18,159 nucleotides of DNA from Opitutales bacterium (GTDB lineage Bacteria > Verrucomicrobiota > Verrucomicrobiia > Opitutales > JABSRG01), in the NCBI GenBank assembly GCA_049599475.1, contig JBMYOQ010000080.1, positions 1 through 18,159 of the forward strand. Reading direction: 5' to 3'. The notes beneath the pieces are model-generated. The model had not been told where the DNA came from and ran no database searches. It saw only the letters and a program-made list of their open reading frames with translations. The translations under genes and the position numbers were made by a program. This document shows, piece by piece, positions 3,387 through 16,663 of the stretch; the stretch's first letter is position 1; every line of letters begins with the position of its first letter.

Positions 3387-6584
<3,198 letters not shown>

Positions 6585-7506: not shown

Positions 7507-8016
7507 TCAATCTTCAGGGAAATCCCGTAATTCACGCTCCTCGGTCTTCTTGGCTATATAGGCTGTGGAGCGGAATATGCACCAGCCAATGAACGAGGAC
7601 GCGACGATGAATATGGTAAATAATTCAAGCCAGCTAACCGAAGAATTTCTCAGCTGATCGCTTCGCATCAAGAGGAAGAACATAGTTAACTGAACCAATG
7701 CGATGGGCAGAAATATATAAAGAGCCTTCTTTTTGCGAGGTGTGGATTCATCGCTGTCAGGCATCTGAGGCACTCCCATGATCGCATTCAGGGCGAGGTA
7801 GAAAAATGTCATGAAAACGGCGATGAGTGTCTGTTGTGTCACCCCAATGCTGTGATATCTGTCGAAGGTGGGTACGCCGAAAAGATCCAGAAGATATTGG
7901 ATAAAGGACAGGGCGATAAATACATGGAATGAGATATACCCAGCTTTATTGCGTATCGCTATTGTACGCTCGTCCATGGTGGAGTTGTCTGAGTTAAAGA
8001 ATGTGAATCTGATCAT
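7507..8016 (-). CDS. Membrane protein with about four TM helices (DUF6773/DUF2178-like), partner of the XRE regulator
   Basis: 169 aa. N-terminal DERxxxIxxKA motif followed by hydrophobic helices. Start is 1 nt after the XRE stop (TAAtATG). Confidence 0.75.
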   Translation of the reverse strand: MIRFTFFNSDNSTMDERTIAIRNKAGYISFHVFIALSFIQYLLDLFGVPTFDRYHSIGVTQQTLIAVFMTFFYLALNAIMGVPQMPDSDESTPRKKKALYIFLPIALVQLTMFFLLMRSDQLRNSSVSWLELFTIFIVASSFIGWCIFRSTAYIAKKTEERELRDFPED

Positions 8017-8017
8017 A

Positions 8018-8227
8018 TTATTTTTGTTGGAGAGTTTCGGGCCAAAATAGATCGTCGAGAGTTTTACCTAAGGTAATAGATATTCGGATACATAGAGAGA
8101 GAGACGGGTTGAATTTACCCGCTTCTATGAGACCGATTGTTTGACGCGTCACTTCGCAGGCCTTCGCCAGCTCTTGCTGATTCATGCCCGCGGAGACCCG
8201 TGCGATTTTCATTTTATGGACAGCCAT
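8018..8227 (-). CDS. Small XRE/Cro-type helix-turn-helix transcriptional regulator
   Basis: 69 aa: KIARVSAGMNQQELAKACEVTRQTIGLIEAGKFNPSLSLCIRISITLGKTLDDLFW, a classic HTH_3 pattern. Confidence 0.93.
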   Translation of the reverse strand: MAVHKMKIARVSAGMNQQELAKACEVTRQTIGLIEAGKFNPSLSLCIRISITLGKTLDDLFWPETLQQK

Positions 8228-8257
8228 TAGACGGTGTGTAATGTTTAATATCCTAAA

Positions 8258-8275
8258 TGGAATATATATATTGCA
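8258..8275. promoter_or_regulatory. Probable operator of the XRE regulator
   Basis: Near-perfect 18-bp palindrome TGGAATATATATATTGCA (one mismatched pair), 30 bp upstream of the XRE start in an AT-rich promoter region. Confidence 0.6.
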
Positions 8276-8681
8276 TTATGTCAAATATAAATGTTTCTCT
8301 GGCGGGAGATAAAGGAGGCTGTTCTATGTTCTGCTATATTGCCGAATCGCGCCCAGATATATTGGCCCAGGAGCGTTGAAGGAAGGGCTGCACACTCTGT
8401 GAGGCGGTCGCAGCGATTAAGCTGAATAGGCGGCTACATCTGGGTGTCGACTATCTCTGAGAGCCCTAGCTTCACCGGAGTTTTTACTAGTGGGCCTGGT
8501 ATGCGGCGATGGAATGCCAGAATTTCGCTCCTAATGCCTGTGTCATACGCTAGTGCAATCTGCGGATGGTGAGCGAGGGCGAGGGGTTCGAAATGGCTGA
8601 CACGGCGTGGGGGCCGAAGCGTTCATCGATCAGATGTTCATATATTTACAGATTTATAGACGTGTAAGGGGTGTCCCTTGG

Positions 8682-8706
8682 TAAAGTTGGCCTCTCGTTT
8701 TCCGAG
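8682..8706 (+). promoter_or_regulatory. Possible sigma-28 (FliA)-like promoter for the kinase pair
   Basis: TAAAG at 8682 and TCCGAG at 8701 match the spacing of TAAA-N15-GCCGATAA, but only CCGA of the -10 element is conserved. Confidence 0.3.
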
Positions 8707-8738
8707 GTTTTAGAGAGGCCTTTTTGTGAGGCTTGCCG

Positions 8739-10175
8739 ATGAGATCCAAAATTCATAGAGGTTCTGCTCAAGGAAAGCCGTATCTGCTTTCGCTTGTTTG
8801 CTTTGTTTGCGTGCTATTGGCGATCCTTGCGATAAATTTGCGTGCTTTGGCGGTCACTGTTCGGGCTGCGAAGGAATACGATGCGTTGGTCCTGGAGTCG
8901 GAGTTGCATGTGAATGCCGGGAGTTCAGCGAGGCGCCTGTATTGGAATTCGAATCTGATCGTTCGAAAAATCAATCGAGGGGCGTTAGAGTTTGATGATT
9001 ACTCCGCTGAGCTGGATGATATGCTGTCCCAAATCGTATCCCGTTTGGAATATTTGAATGCGAGCGATCTGAGCACGCCTACGGAAAAGGCGATCATTGA
9101 GCGACTTTTAGCGGACCGCATTCCTCTATCGGAGGATGCTACCCGAGATCTCCTTTTGGAAAAGACGCAGAGTGATGATCGCACAGACGGAGCATTGTCT
9201 TCGCTTAATCGACCGAGAGTGTTACACGACCTCACGCGATTGCTGAAATCTTATCAGCGATCGGCAGTTCCCTATACGGAGGCTGCCGCGAGAAACCTCG
9301 AGCTAGTCCGATCCTCATCTCTCAAACAATGTATTGGCTCGGCCTTGGTGGGATTGTTGCTCCTGGTTTACTATGTTCGGGAACGCCTAAAAGCGGAGCG
9401 GACTCTTCGAGAAAGTCTAGCTCGATCGGAGTCGGCGAATGCGGAGAAACGGCAATTTTTAGCGAACATGTCTCATGAGACGCGCACTCCCCTAAATGGT
9501 ATTCTGGGGATGGCGCAATTGATTGAAATGGAGGATCTTACGGATGAGTCGCGGGTGCAATTAGAGGGCCTGCAGCGCAGCGGAGAAGCGCTTTTGGGTG
9601 TATTCGCGGATATAATCGATTATACTGATATCGAGTCGCCTGGTTTCGAATTGTCGGTGGATGATATAGACACCAGGCGTTTTTTCTGCGGGTTGGAAGA
9701 TTCTTTGGGCACTCGGGTCAATGAAGCGGGTGGGAGCCTGGATATGGTCCTGGTTGATCGTTTGCCGAAAACCGTCTGCGGCGATGCGGATCGTATGACT
9801 TCAATCCTCAGCCATTTGATCGATCGTGTGGTGGCGTTGGCAGAAAACGGGCAGATTGAGCTCCACGTAGACTGGAACCCTCGCGGTACAGACAGTTCTG
9901 CAAATTTGCTGATGCAGGTGCTATACGTGGGATCGGCTATTCCCGAAGAAACATGGGCTAGGGCGCTCGAGGCTTTTGTTCCCGATGGGGGGTCGGAGCG
10001 CATCGATGAGGCATACGCGGACATTGGTTTGTCGATCAGTAGGTCGCTCGTCCGCCGGATGGACGGGGAGCTGAAGGTATCTGATGATCAGGAGGGGCGT
10101 GCAGCCATCAATCTGTCGATCCCGATGGTCGAGAAATCTATCGTCGAACACAGGGAAGTCGAGGTGAGTGTATGA
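8739..10175 (+). CDS. Membrane sensor histidine kinase A: intact H-box, degenerate HATPase domain
   Basis: Two TM helices around an extracytoplasmic domain. H-box FLANMSHETRTPLNGILG (His codon 9474-9476). N, G1 and G2 boxes degenerate (HLIDRVVAL, VLYVGSAIP, YADIGL). GAGG lies 7 nt before ATG 8739. Confidence 0.88.
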   Translation: MRSKIHRGSAQGKPYLLSLVCFVCVLLAILAINLRALAVTVRAAKEYDALVLESELHVNAGSSARRLYWNSNLIVRKINRGALEFDDYSAELDDMLSQIVSRLEYLNASDLSTPTEKAIIERLLADRIPLSEDATRDLLLEKTQSDDRTDGALSSLNRPRVLHDLTRLLKSYQRSAVPYTEAAARNLELVRSSSLKQCIGSALVGLLLLVYYVRERLKAERTLRESLARSESANAEKRQFLANMSHETRTPLNGILGMAQLIEMEDLTDESRVQLEGLQRSGEALLGVFADIIDYTDIESPGFELSVDDIDTRRFFCGLEDSLGTRVNEAGGSLDMVLVDRLPKTVCGDADRMTSILSHLIDRVVALAENGQIELHVDWNPRGTDSSANLLMQVLYVGSAIPEETWARALEAFVPDGGSERIDEAYADIGLSISRSLVRRMDGELKVSDDQEGRAAINLSIPMVEKSIVEHREVEVSV

Positions 10176-11596
10176 CACACGCACGGAATCCGCTTCCGAA
10201 TGATCCGGAAGCAACGAAACCTGCCTGGCTCTCGCTCGGTTTGTTCTCTGTTGCGCTGTGTGCACTCATTGCCATAAACTTGGGTATCTTTGCTGAGAAA
10301 ATAAGCGCGGTGCACGAGCACGAAAACGCTGTCAAAGAGATTGAATCTCGGCGTGATGAAGGCGTGCTCTTAATCAGTATGGTGAAGCAGCAATCAGTTC
10401 ATTTCGAAGATGCAGCGCGCGCGGGCTTGGATTCGGAATTAGGTCAGAGGGCATGGGTTCGTTTTCAAGGGCTCACTGCCGAGGTGATTGCTGTTTTGGA
10501 GACTATGCAAGGCCGTCCGGACATATCTGAAATGCAGACTTCGATAATCGAGGAGTTGTTGGATGAACACATTCCCTACTATGAAGGTAAAACTCTCACG
10601 AGGCTTCAGAAAATGGGTGCAGCAGGTGTGACAACTCCGAGAAGAAACGCGACGGGAAGACGCACTCTCATACAGAATCTGCGGGAGCTCGAGGAGGAAA
10701 ATTACGCGGTCGTATCGCAGGCCGCCTTTAACGCAAGTCGAGAGCTCAGTGCGAGTTTGACCTCTAGTTACTATCAGATGGCTGGAATCATTTTCCTGGG
10801 ATTGTTTCTGGTAGCTTACTACGTGTATGAGCGCGTCGGAGTCGAACGCTCCCTGAGCCGAGCGGTCAGAAGATCGGAAGCCGGCAACATTGCGAAAGCC
10901 CAGTTTCTTAATTGCATCTCTAGAGACACCCAGGCTCCGCTCGAAGGTATTTTGAAGATGGCTCAGACGATCAAGACGAATGAGCTCAACGAAGAAACGC
11001 AACAGCATGTGGAAACGCTCAGAGGGAGTGGAGAAAACCTACTTGGGATCCTTACCGATATTGTTGAATATACAGAGACGGAATCTGAAGCCTTCGTATT
11101 GACAACGGATGACGTCCATTTTCAGGCCTATTTCGATAGGATCACCGCACCCTATCACGGGGCCGCGCAAGAAAAAGGAATTGCCTTCAAAGTAATGTAT
11201 GCCGGGGCCTTTCCGGAAACGATTCGGATAGCACCGGAAGAGGTTCGGAGCATCGTGAAGTCGCTTGTTGGCAATGCCCTGAAGTTCACCGAAGAAGGAT
11301 ATGTCACGATACTCGCGAAATGGTCTCCCGAGCGTAAACGCGTGCCTGCGACGCTCGATATCGAGGTCCATGATAGTGGGATAGGGGTTCCCCAGAATCA
11401 GCAGGATATGCTCTTTGATGTGTTTACTCAGGCTGATATGTCGGATACCCGCGACTTCGGGGGAACGGGAATTGGCCTCAGCATCTGTGCCGCGCTGACC
11501 CGCAAAATGGGCGGGACTTTGTCCGTCCGCAGTAATATGGGGAAAGGCTCTATTTTTACCGCGAAAATACCCGTTTCAAGTTGGAGCGGTGAATAG
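10172..11596 (+). CDS. Membrane sensor histidine kinase B: intact HATPase domain, H-box His replaced by Arg
   Basis: Two TM helices. H-box equivalent FLNCISRDTQAPLEGIL. Intact N (LVGNALKFT), G1 (VHDSGIG), F (LFDVFTQAD) and G2 (GGTGIGLSIC) boxes. ATGA overlap with the upstream gene. Confidence 0.9.
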   Translation: MTHARNPLPNDPEATKPAWLSLGLFSVALCALIAINLGIFAEKISAVHEHENAVKEIESRRDEGVLLISMVKQQSVHFEDAARAGLDSELGQRAWVRFQGLTAEVIAVLETMQGRPDISEMQTSIIEELLDEHIPYYEGKTLTRLQKMGAAGVTTPRRNATGRRTLIQNLRELEEENYAVVSQAAFNASRELSASLTSSYYQMAGIIFLGLFLVAYYVYERVGVERSLSRAVRRSEAGNIAKAQFLNCISRDTQAPLEGILKMAQTIKTNELNEETQQHVETLRGSGENLLGILTDIVEYTETESEAFVLTTDDVHFQAYFDRITAPYHGAAQEKGIAFKVMYAGAFPETIRIAPEEVRSIVKSLVGNALKFTEEGYVTILAKWSPERKRVPATLDIEVHDSGIGVPQNQQDMLFDVFTQADMSDTRDFGGTGIGLSICAALTRKMGGTLSVRSNMGKGSIFTAKIPVSSWSGE

Positions 11597-11814: not shown

Positions 11815-12936
11815 CTAGCGCTCGACGATGAGCGTAAATTCCACCGGTGTTCCAATACGTACTTTGGTGCGATTCTCCATGCGGTATTTTGGAGTAGCTC
11901 GTATTTTATAGATGCCTCGCTGTGGAGTCCATGCGCGCGGCCAAACTTCGCGGTTTTTTCGGTCGCTATCCCGGAAAACATGATGGCCGGTGGCGCCGCC
12001 TTCGCTGCGAGTGCGCGTCTGCCCGACGTTGCCGCTTGATGAGGTGTGGGTGACTTCGATCTCCATATAGGTGTCATCCCGCATGCCAGAGGACTCCACG
12101 CGAATATTGAGATTCCGAGTCTCCAATGCAGACAAAGAAAGAGTAGCGCTGCCTGCAATATTTTCGAGTCCGTTTAAGGGCGTGTTTTGGTCTGCATTGA
12201 GGACTGTGTATCCGGAAATAGTCGGCGACTCTCCGCGTTCGACGCCGTCCTGGGTCGAGTAAGACACAAAGGATCCAGAGCCAACATCGAAGGTGTCTCC
12301 AGTCTGGCGTACCGTGAATTGGACGAGGCCTGAATCGACATGGAGATGCGTCTTTGAGGGGGCGGTGCTTACACTAAATTGAGTGCCGATTACGGTGATC
12401 TCAGCGTGGTCACTTTCGATCACAAGGGGGCGGTTTTCGGGTTGTTTAGAAACCTGTGCGTCGATGCTGCCGTCGTTGAGTCTGAGCCGCTTTTGTCCGG
12501 GTAGATCGGTAGAGGCCACGAGCTGGAGGCTACTTTTTTCCTGAATCGATATTTGGCTGCCATCTGCGTATGCGATTTGGATTGGATTTTTATCCGTTTG
12601 CAGCGAAGAACCGGGAGCGAGCTCTGAGCCGTCCGCCTGGATCGCTGTGCCTGCGAGGGGCGCTTCGCTTTCTGGGACTGATCCTTCAAAGCCGCGGAAG
12701 ACTGCGACTATCAATACACTGGCGATGGCGGCAATCGCCACTGATGCTGCGATCGCAAGCGGCCGACTGAAGAATGGGAATGGGATGCGATTGTCCTTTG
12801 GCTTCCCAGAGGAAGGCGTTGAGGCCTCGACATGATCGATGATAGCGCGCTCTACATTGGGCGGTCTATCTTCCCCGACAGCCTCGTCCAGGAGCATGTC
12901 CATGTATCTGTCTTTATGTTGGGAGTCGCTGCTCAT
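11815..12936 (-). CDS. FecR-domain anti-sigma factor with an extra C-terminal beta-rich domain
   Basis: Short N-terminus, one TM helix (LAIAASVAIAAIASVLIVAVF), FecR motifs YADGSQISI, LRLNDGSIDAQV, ITVIGTQFSV and LHVDSGLV. Located directly downstream of the ECF sigma. Confidence 0.88.
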   Translation of the reverse strand: MSSDSQHKDRYMDMLLDEAVGEDRPPNVERAIIDHVEASTPSSGKPKDNRIPFPFFSRPLAIAASVAIAAIASVLIVAVFRGFEGSVPESEAPLAGTAIQADGSELAPGSSLQTDKNPIQIAYADGSQISIQEKSSLQLVASTDLPGQKRLRLNDGSIDAQVSKQPENRPLVIESDHAEITVIGTQFSVSTAPSKTHLHVDSGLVQFTVRQTGDTFDVGSGSFVSYSTQDGVERGESPTISGYTVLNADQNTPLNGLENIAGSATLSLSALETRNLNIRVESSGMRDDTYMEIEVTHTSSSGNVGQTRTRSEGGATGHHVFRDSDRKNREVWPRAWTPQRGIYKIRATPKYRMENRTKVRIGTPVEFTLIVER

Positions 12937-12997
12937 TTTTGGGAATTAAAAAATGCTTCGTCGGTAAGCTGTTTTGTAGGGGCGCTACCCATATATG

Positions 12998-13537
12998 TCA
13001 TTTTTCCGAATTAGGGTTCGTATTAATTAAATTATTTTGAATGCAGTCATAGAGTTTTGCGCGTATGCGCCTCAGCGCCGTCTTTACGCCGTCCTCTCGC
13101 ATCTTCAATGTGAGAGCGATGGCTTGTCGGGATACCTTGCTCTTGTAGAATAGCTCGACGATACGAGTCTGTTTTTCGGGCAAGCGCTCTAGGCATTGTT
13201 TTAGAGCGATGATCTTCTGGGTCTCATCCTGTGTGTCGCCAGAACGTTCTACCCAGTAATCTTCGGCACTCTGAAGGAAATCGCTATCGTAGACCAGTTG
13301 GCTGCGCTTCTGTTTACGGCAGTGCTGATAAAAGACGTTTCGGGCAATGGATCTGAGCCAGGCGATGCGTTGAGAGGTGTCGGCTAGGTCAGGTTGTTTT
13401 TTCGCGTTGTAGGCCCCTATAAATGCGCTTTGCACCACCTCGCGCGCTGTAGATGCATCCGCTCCCATATATTTTACGTATCTGTAGAGCTCGTCTTGAT
13501 GAGCGATCACAAGCTCGCGAATTTGCTGCGAATTCAT
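12998..13537 (-). CDS. ECF-type sigma-70 factor
   Basis: 179 aa. Region 2 AREVVQSAF...WLRSIARN; region 4 LKQCLERLPEKQTRIVELFY...VKTALRRIRAKLYDCI. Confidence 0.93.
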   Translation of the reverse strand: MNSQQIRELVIAHQDELYRYVKYMGADASTAREVVQSAFIGAYNAKKQPDLADTSQRIAWLRSIARNVFYQHCRKQKRSQLVYDSDFLQSAEDYWVERSGDTQDETQKIIALKQCLERLPEKQTRIVELFYKSKVSRQAIALTLKMREDGVKTALRRIRAKLYDCIQNNLINTNPNSEK

Positions 13538-13822: not shown

Positions 13823-16663
13823 ATGCACACTTTCTATCCCTACTCATTTTCTAGGTATTTGGCAAAATTGTCGTCTCTGCTCTTGGTCTTGGCATCGTGT
13901 ATGTGGGCGCCCTGTGTGAACGCCCTGGTGGTCTACAAGGAGACGGGTGGCGTCCTTATGATGGACAATGAATTCGCGCCTGCCGGAGACCGGTGGGCAG
14001 TGGGGCCAGAGGATCCCGATGCGACTCCGGTGCGTCCAACATCGGATGATATTGTACCCAATAATTTTGGAGATTACTTTGGGGAAAATTACTACATGGC
14101 CACTCAGAATGATTTCCAGAATCCGGGCCGTGGACAGATTCTGGATTACCCGTTTATTTTGACGACCGCGAGTCGGTATCAATTCCAGATGCGGTCGATG
14201 ATCGGAATTGAAGACACTAGGAGTCCTCGATCGGAACACAACGACCTCTGGATGCGCCTACTGGACCAAGACGGAAATAGCATCGAGCGCCTCGATCTCG
14301 TCGATAATCATAACTCGGCGATTGATTATGACGACAATGGCGAGCCCTGGTACAAAGTGTATATGAATAAAAACAACAGGTGGGTGTGGGATACCCGCAA
14401 TGTTGATGGAAATGGACAACCGCTCTATTGGGACTTGGAAGCTGGGCAGGTGTATACCATTCAAATCAGTGCGCGTTCTCGTGGCCACTGTTTCGACCGC
14501 CTCATGATGTGGGATCGCTATGGAGACGTTATTTACGGGAAATCGGGTAATGGAAATGGCGAGACCTATCCTGCAGGACATCCCAACGAGGGAGAGGCCT
14601 TGGCTGATTACGTTCCCGTATCAGAAATCGTCGACCTCTCTGCATCCAGTACCGTGACCGGTGAATTGAAGCGATGGCACAAGGTCACGATTAATTTCGA
14701 AGGACCGGATACGAGTGAAAGTGCCACGCCCAATCCGTTCTTGGATTACCGCCTGGATGTTACCTTTAGGCATGCTGATACTGGGAAAATCTACACCGTA
14801 CCCGGGTACTATGCTGCCGACGGGGATGCGGCCAATACCGGAGCAACGGGTGGAAATATATGGCGGGCGCATTTCGCTCCCGATGAAATTGGCGACTGGT
14901 CCTACGCGGCTCGCTTTTTGGAAGGGACCAATGTCGCGGGCCTCGCCGATCCGACGACTATCGGAGCCGCGAGCAGCTATATCGATGGCATTTATGGCAA
15001 ATTTACGGTCGACGAAACAGACAAGAGCGGCCGCGATTTTCGTGGAAAAGGACGCCTTCAGTATGTTGGCGGGCACTACCTTCAACATGCAGGCAGTGGA
15101 GAATATTTCCTAAAGCAAGGGGCGGACTCTCCGGAAAATTTCCTCGCCTATTCGGGCTTCGATGGAAATTGGAAAACGGATGGGTATCGCGACGATATTA
15201 TCAAAGACTGGGCGCCTCACGTGCAGGATTGGGTGACTGGAGATCCTAGCTGGGGAGGGGGCGTTCATGGCAAAGGCATCATTGGCGCGATCAATTACCT
15301 CGCAAGTGAGGGATTAAACGGGATGTCTTTCCTTACATTTAACGTGGGTGGAGATGATCAGAATGTCTTTCCTCACATTGATTACGGAGTCTATGACCGC
15401 ATGGATGTCTCAAAGCTCGACCAGTGGGGCATCGTTCTCGATCACGCAACCCATCAGGGCATGTTTATGGATTTCAAAACTCAGGAAAAGGAGAACGAAA
15501 TCTTTCTAGATAATGGAGATGTGGGTACTCATCGTACCCTTTACTATCGCGAGCTGGTTGCGCGTTTTGGCCACAATCTTGGGCTCATGTGGAATTTGGG
15601 CGAAGAGAACGGCATTTGGAACAATACAAAGAACAAGCCCGAAGAGGAGTCGCAAACGACGGAGCAGCGGCATGCAATGGCCGATTGGTTCAACGCGAAT
15701 GATCCATACGGTCATCATATAGTTCTTCATAACGGACAGCCGGGTTGGGATATGCTCGGGCCAGACTCCAGCCTGACCGGGTTCTCGCTTCAGACCACGC
15801 GCGATGACTTTAGCCGAGTGCCCACAATGATCGCAAATTACATTAGCAGATCTGTCCAGGATGGTAAGCCGTGGGTGGTGACTTGTGATGAGCCGGGGCA
15901 AGCACGAACTGGAGTCCGGCCAGACAGCGATCCAGGTAATTCGCATGAAGACGGTCGTCGCAATGCAATGTGGGGGTGCATTATGAACCAGGGCGCAGGC
16001 AGTGATTATTATTTTGGATACGATTATGATCACTCCGACTTGTTCCTTACGGATTACCGAAGTCGTGACAATTGGTGGGACTACGCTCGCTACACTTTAG
16101 AATTTTTCGATAAAAAGGACCGAAATGGAGCCCAAATTGCACCGTTTTGGGAACTCACTGCGGATCATACCCTGATCAGTGATGATACCGTCGCTTGGTG
16201 CATGGCAAATTTGGGAAAAACCTACCTGGTATTTATTAAAGACCACACCAACACGATCACTCTCGATCTCTCTGCTGGCCAAGGAAGGTATGACGTATTC
16301 TGGTACAATCCACGCACGGGCGGTGATTTGCAGACGGGCTCCGTTGCCAGTGTCACGGGTGGAAACACGGTTGATTTAGGCGCCTCGCCAGATGGGCAAT
16401 CTGCAGACGACTGGGTGGTGGTTGTCCGAGAGGAAGACCTCACGGGGACTGCCACTGGCCTATCATTGATCGATACCACGGATGGGTCGGTCATCGAGGG
16501 ATACGCTGACCTTCAGGAAGGCCAAGTCATCAACTTGTGGGAATTGCCTAGCTCAGTTGGTTTTTCTGCACACATCGAGATTCTGGCGAATTTCGAAGGG
16601 CAGGGGTTTCGTTTTTTTTCAATGAAGACACTGCGGGCGGTGGCTCCGAGCCCACATTGGTAA
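13823..16663 (+). CDS. Secreted DUF5060-domain putative glycoside hydrolase, N-terminal part (frameshifted relative to its C-terminal part)
   Basis: Sec signal (...APCVNA|LVV), N-terminal CBM-like beta domain, DUF5060-like segment (GELKRWHKVTINFEGP, NPFLDYRLDVTF, WRAHFAPDEIGDW), TIM-barrel-like core (YYRELVARFGHNL..WNLGEEN, DEPG) and a collagen-binding-like domain (WYNPRTGG...DWVVVV). The last ~14 aa look like out-of-frame run-off. Confidence 0.8.
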   Translation: MHTFYPYSFSRYLAKLSSLLLVLASCMWAPCVNALVVYKETGGVLMMDNEFAPAGDRWAVGPEDPDATPVRPTSDDIVPNNFGDYFGENYYMATQNDFQNPGRGQILDYPFILTTASRYQFQMRSMIGIEDTRSPRSEHNDLWMRLLDQDGNSIERLDLVDNHNSAIDYDDNGEPWYKVYMNKNNRWVWDTRNVDGNGQPLYWDLEAGQVYTIQISARSRGHCFDRLMMWDRYGDVIYGKSGNGNGETYPAGHPNEGEALADYVPVSEIVDLSASSTVTGELKRWHKVTINFEGPDTSESATPNPFLDYRLDVTFRHADTGKIYTVPGYYAADGDAANTGATGGNIWRAHFAPDEIGDWSYAARFLEGTNVAGLADPTTIGAASSYIDGIYGKFTVDETDKSGRDFRGKGRLQYVGGHYLQHAGSGEYFLKQGADSPENFLAYSGFDGNWKTDGYRDDIIKDWAPHVQDWVTGDPSWGGGVHGKGIIGAINYLASEGLNGMSFLTFNVGGDDQNVFPHIDYGVYDRMDVSKLDQWGIVLDHATHQGMFMDFKTQEKENEIFLDNGDVGTHRTLYYRELVARFGHNLGLMWNLGEENGIWNNTKNKPEEESQTTEQRHAMADWFNANDPYGHHIVLHNGQPGWDMLGPDSSLTGFSLQTTRDDFSRVPTMIANYISRSVQDGKPWVVTCDEPGQARTGVRPDSDPGNSHEDGRRNAMWGCIMNQGAGSDYYFGYDYDHSDLFLTDYRSRDNWWDYARYTLEFFDKKDRNGAQIAPFWELTADHTLISDDTVAWCMANLGKTYLVFIKDHTNTITLDLSAGQGRYDVFWYNPRTGGDLQTGSVASVTGGNTVDLGASPDGQSADDWVVVVREEDLTGTATGLSLIDTTDGSVIEGYADLQEGQVINLWELPSSVGFSAHIEILANFEGQGFRFFSMKTLRAVAPSPHW

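Follow-up and report, generated by a model that had tools for sequence, protein, structure and literature searches.

Reciprocal degeneration of two translationally coupled histidine kinases in a marine Opitutales bacterium suggests a heteromeric sensor kinase

An 18,159-nucleotide stretch of contig JBMYOQ010000080.1 from an Opitutales bacterium (assembly GCA_049599475.1), called the window in the following, carries on its forward strand two adjacent histidine kinase-like genes that we refer to as kinase A (positions 8739-10175; 478 amino acids from its ATG) and kinase B (10172-11596; 474 amino acids). Both proteins comprise a first transmembrane segment (TM1), a helical periplasmic region of ca. 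170 residues, a second transmembrane segment (TM2), a linker, a DHp domain (for dimerization and histidine phosphotransfer), and a catalytic and ATP-binding (CA) domain. They share 29% identity over 464 residues (E 8e-56) in an alignment that runs without gaps through the DHp hairpin and, because this similarity includes the N-terminal halves, are tandem paralogues. The TGA stop codon of A overlaps the ATG of B within an ATGA at 10172-10175, as a preliminary description of the locus had pointed out, and together with a GAGG at 10162-10165, 6 nt upstream of the B start codon, forms a translational coupling signal (10162-10175, forward strand) that is read directly from the sequence. Co-expression is predicted from this gene layout, and a promoter and terminator scan, with counts close to shuffle expectation, gave no terminator-like site between the two genes. 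The start of A at 8739 is favored by the alignment of its N-terminus and TM1 with B and their relatives, while an alternative gene call in one source (P0003, 454 amino acids) begins 24 codons later at 8811 and cuts into TM1. Upstream of the pair, at ca. 8690-8727 of the forward strand, lies a GC-rich hairpin of 8 bp (GGCCUCUC...GAGAGGCC) with a trailing UUUUU; this element stops 12 nt short of the A start codon and looks like a terminator or attenuator, with a fold energy not significantly different from that of shuffled sequences (z -1.4); an Rfam scan of 7900-8900 gave no match.

The closest family of A and B consists of hybrid kinases of ca. 630 amino acids (P0004, P0242, P0243, P0297, and P0301), all five of which combine canonical H, N, G1, and G2 boxes with a C-terminal receiver domain. 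Kinases A and B both end after the CA domain, and tblastn found no receiver remnant on the contig. The two open reading frames, previously described as full length, are thus so relative to each other and not relative to these relatives.

Kinase A is a class I protein of the HisKA/HATPase_c type and of a GacS/BarA-like subfamily that has kept its phosphoacceptor site and lost its ATP-binding site. Behind the sensor part (residues 1-236; 8739-9446), which comprises TM1, a periplasmic sensor-like domain, TM2, and the linker, its DHp domain (residues 237-305; 9447-9653; HisKA 62.2 bits in Pfam) carries the acceptor His246 as CAT at 9474-9476, within FLANMSHETRTPLNG. The Glu at H+1 and the Thr at H+4 are retained, so that the sequence H-E-T-R-T fits the HE/DxxN/T phosphatase motif. 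The following CA domain (residues 306-465; 9654-10133) still matches HATPase_c with 33.0 bits, and all three ATP-binding boxes are altered: The N-box reads HLIDRVVALAENG with Arg363 (9825-9827) in place of Asn, the G1 box reads YVGSAIP with Tyr396 (9924-9926) in place of Asp, and the G2 box reads AYADIGL. The loss of the N-box Asn and G1 Asp next to a canonical H-box is as previously described, down to each named codon; for the G2 box, the loss of GGTG stands, while its reported replacement, YADI, is one residue out of register and should read AYAD (10011-10022). The damage extends further to the N-box Lys, the G1 Gly, the lid Arg, and the G3 box. Measured against 37 other kinases, just 8 of the 23 conserved columns with polar residues or Gly are preserved in this domain, as opposed to 38 of the 41 hydrophobic-core columns (p=1.5e-6). 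An AlphaFold2 (AF2) model of residues 223-478 with a mean predicted local distance difference test score (pLDDT) of 84.4 shows a helical hairpin and an alpha/beta CA domain of normal topology, the CA block scoring mostly 81-96 and values below 50 being confined to model residues 194-198 in the lid and to the C-terminal end.

Kinase B presents the opposite picture. Its pseudo-phosphoacceptor DHp domain (residues 242-310; 10895-11101) reaches 25.4 bits for HisKA, under the Pfam cut-off of 26.9, and has an H-box reading SRDTQAPLE in which the His, Glu, Arg, Thr, and Asn are all replaced (by Arg, Asp, Gln, Ala, and Glu, respectively). Arg251 takes the place of the acceptor His and is encoded by AGA at 10922-10924, within FLNCISRDTQAPLEG; this codon differs from both His codons at all three bases and, as already argued in the preliminary description, does not stem from a single-base error. 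The sole other His of this domain (in QQHVETL) was considered as an alternative acceptor and rejected, since it aligns with a non-acceptor His of the intact relative P0242. Compared with 33 other kinases, 7 of the 18 conserved columns with polar residues survive in this domain versus 20 of the 24 hydrophobic ones (p=0.004). The CA domain of B (residues 311-470; 11102-11581; HATPase_c 82.0 bits) is complete, with Asn368 (11273-11275), Asp401 (11372-11374), GGTGIG (11459-11476), and the G3 box in place as previously reported, and retains 20 of the 25 conserved positions with polar residues or Gly, among them all ATP and Mg ligands. In both proteins, the lesions are therefore wider than had been listed before, with many residues affected in the CA domain of A and the DHp domain of B.

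Such lesions are rare among the histidine kinases of this organism. Across the 37 HisKA-type cores of its genome, B shares the lack of the acceptor His with a single, unlinked hybrid kinase, A is alone in having no N-box Asn, and a replacement of the G1 Asp occurs in A (by Tyr) and in just one other kinase (by Asn). At 99 loci from other genomes, a sample gathered by similarity to intact queries and hence biased, H, N, and D are all present in 104 of 105 complete cores. From these sequence counts, the lesions of A and B are evidently more than chance. The second His-less kinase (G000:C7:32222-33967, reverse strand; L118 4220-5962) is a soluble hybrid protein with HisKA, HATPase_c, and receiver domains whose acceptor position is occupied by Asn and whose G2 box deviates; its gene adjoins those of PhoX and a metalloenzyme phosphatase, has no kinase partner nearby, and encodes a receiver that is among the three best matches to the receiver of P0004.

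The phylogeny of the pair follows the same reciprocal pattern. In a tree of 15 DHp and CA cores (LG+G4), A and B group together (support 89), then with P0004 (92), and then with P0242 inside a clade of support 100, placing them as sister paralogues nested within the family of ca. 630-residue hybrid kinases from which they appear to descend. Their terminal branches are long (A 1.63, B 1.00) compared to that of P0004 (0.32), and the excess is distributed unevenly when the topology is fixed and the domains are analyzed separately: The DHp branches measure 0.35 for A, 0.65 for B, and 0.14 for P0004, and the CA branches 2.36, 0.86, and 0.37, respectively. Identity to P0004 is 63% for A and 50% for B in the DHp domain versus 28% and 40% in the CA domain, and the TM2-linker region of A is 57% identical to that of P0004. 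Of the positions without variation among the five intact relatives, 26 lie in the DHp domain and 35 in the CA domain; A retains 23 and 15 of them, respectively, and B 15 and 31. All four contrasts between these counts reach p values of 0.03 or less (Fisher test; p=0.0004 within A, 0.008 within B, and 0.0001 between the CA domains of A and B). A Tajima-type count with P0004 as outgroup gives 8 A-unique versus 17 B-unique changes in the DHp domain and 42 versus 23 in the CA domain (Fisher p=0.009), and with P0242 as outgroup, the same count yields p=0.03. By all of these sequence measures, each protein shows conservation in its surviving domain and acceleration in its dead one.

We also asked how neutral drift would have treated the two genes, using point-substitution simulations that start from the window's own coding sequence; these ignore indels and charge all divergence to one lineage, which makes them rough. 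Of 2000 runs taken to the identity observed, 0.9% left a CA-sized frame without stop codons, while a whole gene accumulated a mean of 14 stops and remained open in 0 of 300 runs. Because simulated drift never leaves the whole gene open, both frames are kept open under selection, within the accuracy of this rough approach. The dead domains, which keep their hydrophobic core and lose functional polar residues, look like products of subfunctionalization and not of decay.

The best single reading of these observations is a heteromeric kinase in which the ATPase of B phosphorylates the His of A, a proposal to which we would give an even chance. In this scenario, a hybrid sensor kinase from a small GacS/BarA-related family would have been duplicated in tandem to give A and B, both copies would have lost the receiver domain, and subfunctionalization would have followed, with A keeping the acceptor DHp domain while its ATPase domain turned into a folded pseudo-domain and B keeping a complete ATPase domain while losing the phosphoacceptor site. 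With a single, translationally coupled message presumably yielding them in equal amounts, the two proteins would most simply assemble through DHp domains, TM2, and linker into a mixed dimer with a four-helix bundle, because B has a catalytic domain without an acceptor and A an acceptor without an ATP site. The CA domain of B would then phosphorylate His246 of A in trans, phosphorylated A would donate its phosphate to a receiver protein from another locus, and the HExxT motif of A may also serve to dephosphorylate that receiver. The more specific view that the pair is an obligately heteromeric transmembrane sensor kinase of the HisKA type, caught soon after tandem duplication, with one ATP site, one acceptor His, and in each subunit a folded pseudo-copy of the domain that it has surrendered, is one that we hold more tentatively, at slightly below even chances.

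The obligate heterodimer put forward in the preliminary description thus finds partial support in the reciprocal multi-residue lesions, the conservation of the surviving domains, the selection on both frames, and the trans mode reported for GacS and BarA, while we infer the formation of the heteromer, the direction of phosphotransfer from B to A, and the receiver partner. At the sequence level, the pair has what defines a split kinase, namely a His-bearing protein without a working ATPase and an ATPase protein without the His. The full catalytic set of B, which a mere scaffold would not seem to need, further supports phosphotransfer between the two. Complex prediction for A 223-478 with B 228-474, run with separate alignments and without controls, gave scores of 0.30 and 0.26 against a mark of 0.32, which speaks neither for nor against a complex.

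The idea that two kinase-like proteins share the work of one is less new than the preliminary description proposed, since the principle has experimental precedent in the FasBC system and in split CheA proteins. That description had named CheA3/CheA4 and DivL as precedents, but FasB/FasC and the mixing assay performed with GacS are closer. In group A Streptococcus, FasB and FasC are encoded by adjacent sensor kinase-like genes, and the reported evidence speaks for heterodimerization and not homodimerization (PMC12675982). H246 of FasC was found to be required and its kinase domain dispensable, a DHp-HATPase fragment of FasB was sufficient, and the authors, who call FasC a pseudokinase, propose that FasB phosphorylates FasC in trans (PMC12675982). 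The Fas system shows that a pair of this kind works in vivo and has, as reported, the same division of labor as we propose for the tandem A/B pair, which likewise consists of two adjacent kinase-like genes that are predicted to be co-expressed. The Fas proteins differ in being described with six predicted transmembrane segments, in belonging to another kinase class, and in having a ComE-like regulator in the same operon, whereas A and B are HisKA-type proteins with two transmembrane segments that derive from a hybrid kinase and have no linked regulator, the 18 kb window being free of receiver-domain genes. Furthermore, FasB still has a His (H284) and phosphorylation in cis is not excluded in the published account, while for A and B the loss is visible in both sequences.

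Among proteins of known structure, the closest relatives by sequence are GacS (7z8n; 90 bits for A and 121 bits for B), to which A aligns without gaps through the DHp hairpin, and RetS (6dk7, 6dk8). The H293A and G472A/G474A variants of GacS are each reported to be inactive and to regain phosphorylation upon mixing, indicating a trans mode, and BarA is likewise reported to autophosphorylate in trans (PMC8498467). Kinases A and B would be the natural counterpart of these two variants, which, as described, are laboratory mutants of one protein, unlike A and B. A heterodimeric DHp bundle has also been reported for RetS and GacS, with a crystallized DHp-DHp interface (PMC8498467, PMC12148439). According to these reports, their interaction is inhibitory, both proteins also homodimerize, their genes are unlinked, and both are large hybrid kinases with receiver domains, unlike A and B.

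For CheA3 and CheA4 of Rhodobacter sphaeroides, ATP binding and phosphotransfer are reported to reside on two complexed proteins, neither of which autophosphorylates alone, and it was suggested that His-bearing proteins with an HE/DxxN/T phosphatase motif could be split bifunctional kinases (PMC3591291). The HETRT of A has this motif on the His-bearing partner. In CheA3 and CheA4, which are proteins of the CheA class, the missing domains are described as absent altogether, whereas A and B carry folded, inactivated copies and are transmembrane sensors. DivL of Caulobacter and RcsD of enterobacteria are kinase-like proteins without an acceptor His that work with another kinase; they regulate or relay and are not known to donate an ATPase to a partner's His or to have an adjacent, reciprocally ATP-dead partner. 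In Mycobacterium tuberculosis, the ATP-binding domain and the His domain of a sensor kinase are found on two different proteins. Two adjacent sensor kinase genes of this organism are reported to serve one regulator (Rv0600c/Rv0601c/TcrA; PMC3544749). In that system, the domains are physically split and the response regulator is encoded alongside, while A and B are two full copies that are reciprocally degenerate. A literature search that most subscription journals lay outside of led to FasBC, to split CheA, to the M. tuberculosis system with its two kinases, and to pseudokinases, but to no description of a reciprocally degenerate HisKA-type pair.

Several observations weigh against a heteromeric kinase. 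The receiver domain has been lost from both proteins, and neither a response regulator nor a histidine phosphotransfer (Hpt) protein is encoded in the 18 kb window; elsewhere in the genome, there are six Hpt matches and many receiver domains. None of the latter is a distinctive stand-alone relative of the P0004 receiver, the best matches to which are the receivers of other hybrid kinases (72-75 bits). The sensor parts retain 12 (A) and 11 (B) of the 33 positions at which the five intact relatives do not vary, and both lack the family-invariant periplasmic motifs QVQEWKNVL(I/L)RG (in A, loss of QVQEWKNVLIRG) and VRGIDR, though the domains can still be aligned. The heavily altered DHp surface of B could weaken dimerization, trans autophosphorylation in this family is presumed from GacS and BarA only, and the long branches of A and B also fit relaxed selection.

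The same holds for the phylogenetic distribution, as searches of 40 related genomes, 5.8 billion protein clusters, and 1.84 billion representatives and two metagenome scans all failed to bring up an orthologous pair. In the protein clusters, the only long match to A is P0004 (634 amino acids; 34% identity, 93% coverage), and no match to B covers more than 61%. Among the 40 related genomes, the sole whole-protein match is a 631-residue hybrid kinase in genome G002 that has no tandem partner; a genome of the same genus (86% complete) gave core-level matches only. A search of the 1.84 billion representatives with a 631-position profile that includes a full-length P0004 row returned 1,314,147 kinase or receiver matches, and among the best 150, which we inspected, only P0242, P0243, P0297, P0301, A, and B match in the N-terminal part (start before profile position 31). 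The metagenome scans with A and with B yielded 179 and 62 stretches with matching patterns, none of which encodes a relative, and in a scan of genome contigs with P0004, which was dominated by the receiver-domain pattern, none of the 80 loci retained has a match that starts before query residue 170. The pair is therefore known from one uncultured marine organism only and may be young and restricted to one species.

As the strongest alternative, A and B could be modulators in the manner of RetS or DivL that, separately or together, tune an intact kinase such as a P0004-like one or a response regulator, with A acting as a phosphatase or as a sink for phosphate, B as a scaffold that depends on ATP, and no phosphotransfer from B to A. 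The loss of the receiver domain and of the family's sensor motifs in both proteins would suit such a role, as would the retained HExxT phosphatase motif of A. RetS, from the closest solved subfamily, is reported to inhibit GacS through the heterodimeric DHp interface and by phosphate siphoning. An intact relative may even coexist with the pair, given that an 18,883-bp contig with P0004, the closest intact relative of A and B (run X1), was found in the same sample as the window contig at similar depth (24.3 versus 21.7). This contig may come from the same organism, as an unbinned contig, or from a close relative; P0004 is not part of the binned genome, which counts against the modulator idea. 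DivL and RcsD provide general examples of pseudokinase regulators. However, a modulatory function predicts neither the exact complementarity of the lesions nor the translational coupling, and the catalytic positions retained by B, including every ATP and Mg ligand, would be unexpected for a scaffold. We thus judge this alternative unlikely, though well worth keeping in mind.

Less probable still is that A and B are redundant duplicates on their way to becoming pseudogenes and that the complementarity of their lesions is coincidental. A singleton pair seen in this organism only, with very long terminal branches and without receiver domain and sensor motifs, is what one might expect of decay, and a gene of the neighborhood encoding a glycoside hydrolase family 2 (GH2) beta-galactosidase carries an in-frame TAG. 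But drift would hardly have left ca. 475 codons open in both frames, given the stop codons that accumulate in our simulations, nor does it predict that two copies lose opposite functions. The dead domains have preserved their hydrophobic cores while losing polar functional sites, the surviving domains match or exceed the conservation level of the family, and the GC content is uniform across the window. The beta-galactosidase gene itself (3402-6584, forward strand) is split by a single TAG at 5502-5504, with GH2 N-terminal, middle, and TIM-barrel domains in 3402-5501 and Bgal_small_N in the same frame at 5535-6584; it may be a pseudogene, contain a sequencing error, or have a read-through site.

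Finally, the lesions could stem from errors in sequencing or assembly or from a chimeric contig, which might be suspected of a metagenome-derived assembly of 146 contigs in which the Arg251 codon of B is covered by one run only, the probable source run, but this is exceedingly improbable. Over 9668-9964, 9731-10026, and 11170-11407, which include the N-box and G1 box of both A and B, contigs of two other studies do not differ from the window, and the lesions are not an assembly error. Each lesion also comprises many substituted residues, with the Arg codon of B three bases away from any His codon, and a second assembly gives the same A and B proteins. The runs holding pieces of this region are labeled as seawater, marine, and sediment metagenomes, and the identity of these pieces to the window leaves zero variation for an estimate of pN/pS.

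Two further features of the surroundings deserve mention. The nearest genes to the kinase pair encode an ECF sigma factor and a FecR-like anti-sigma factor (11815-13537, reverse strand) and are convergent with it, with no functional link evident. A few kb from the pair, at 13823-16663 on the forward strand, lies a glycoside hydrolase-like gene containing DUF5060, and another such gene (L031 680-2527, reverse strand) is found within a similar distance beside the family member in genome G002; this loose synteny might offer a clue to the signal recognized by the ancestral sensor.

It is assumed that histidine kinases form symmetric homodimers, and their paralogues usually evolve away from mixing. 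If our favored reading of A and B as a heteromeric kinase is true, duplication and complementary loss would have led to an obligate heteromer in the GacS/BarA-like class, and on the more specific, obligately heteromeric view, the pair would be a natural version of the complementation between an H-box mutant and a G2 mutant, with a built-in asymmetry and possibly the switch-like behavior predicted for split kinases. An intact H-box with a dead ATP site beside a dead H-box with an intact ATP site is a signature that can be searched for. The A/B pair would then be a clean natural substrate for studying how an asymmetric kinase dimer signals and if its pseudo-CA and pseudo-DHp domains serve any structural or regulatory purpose.

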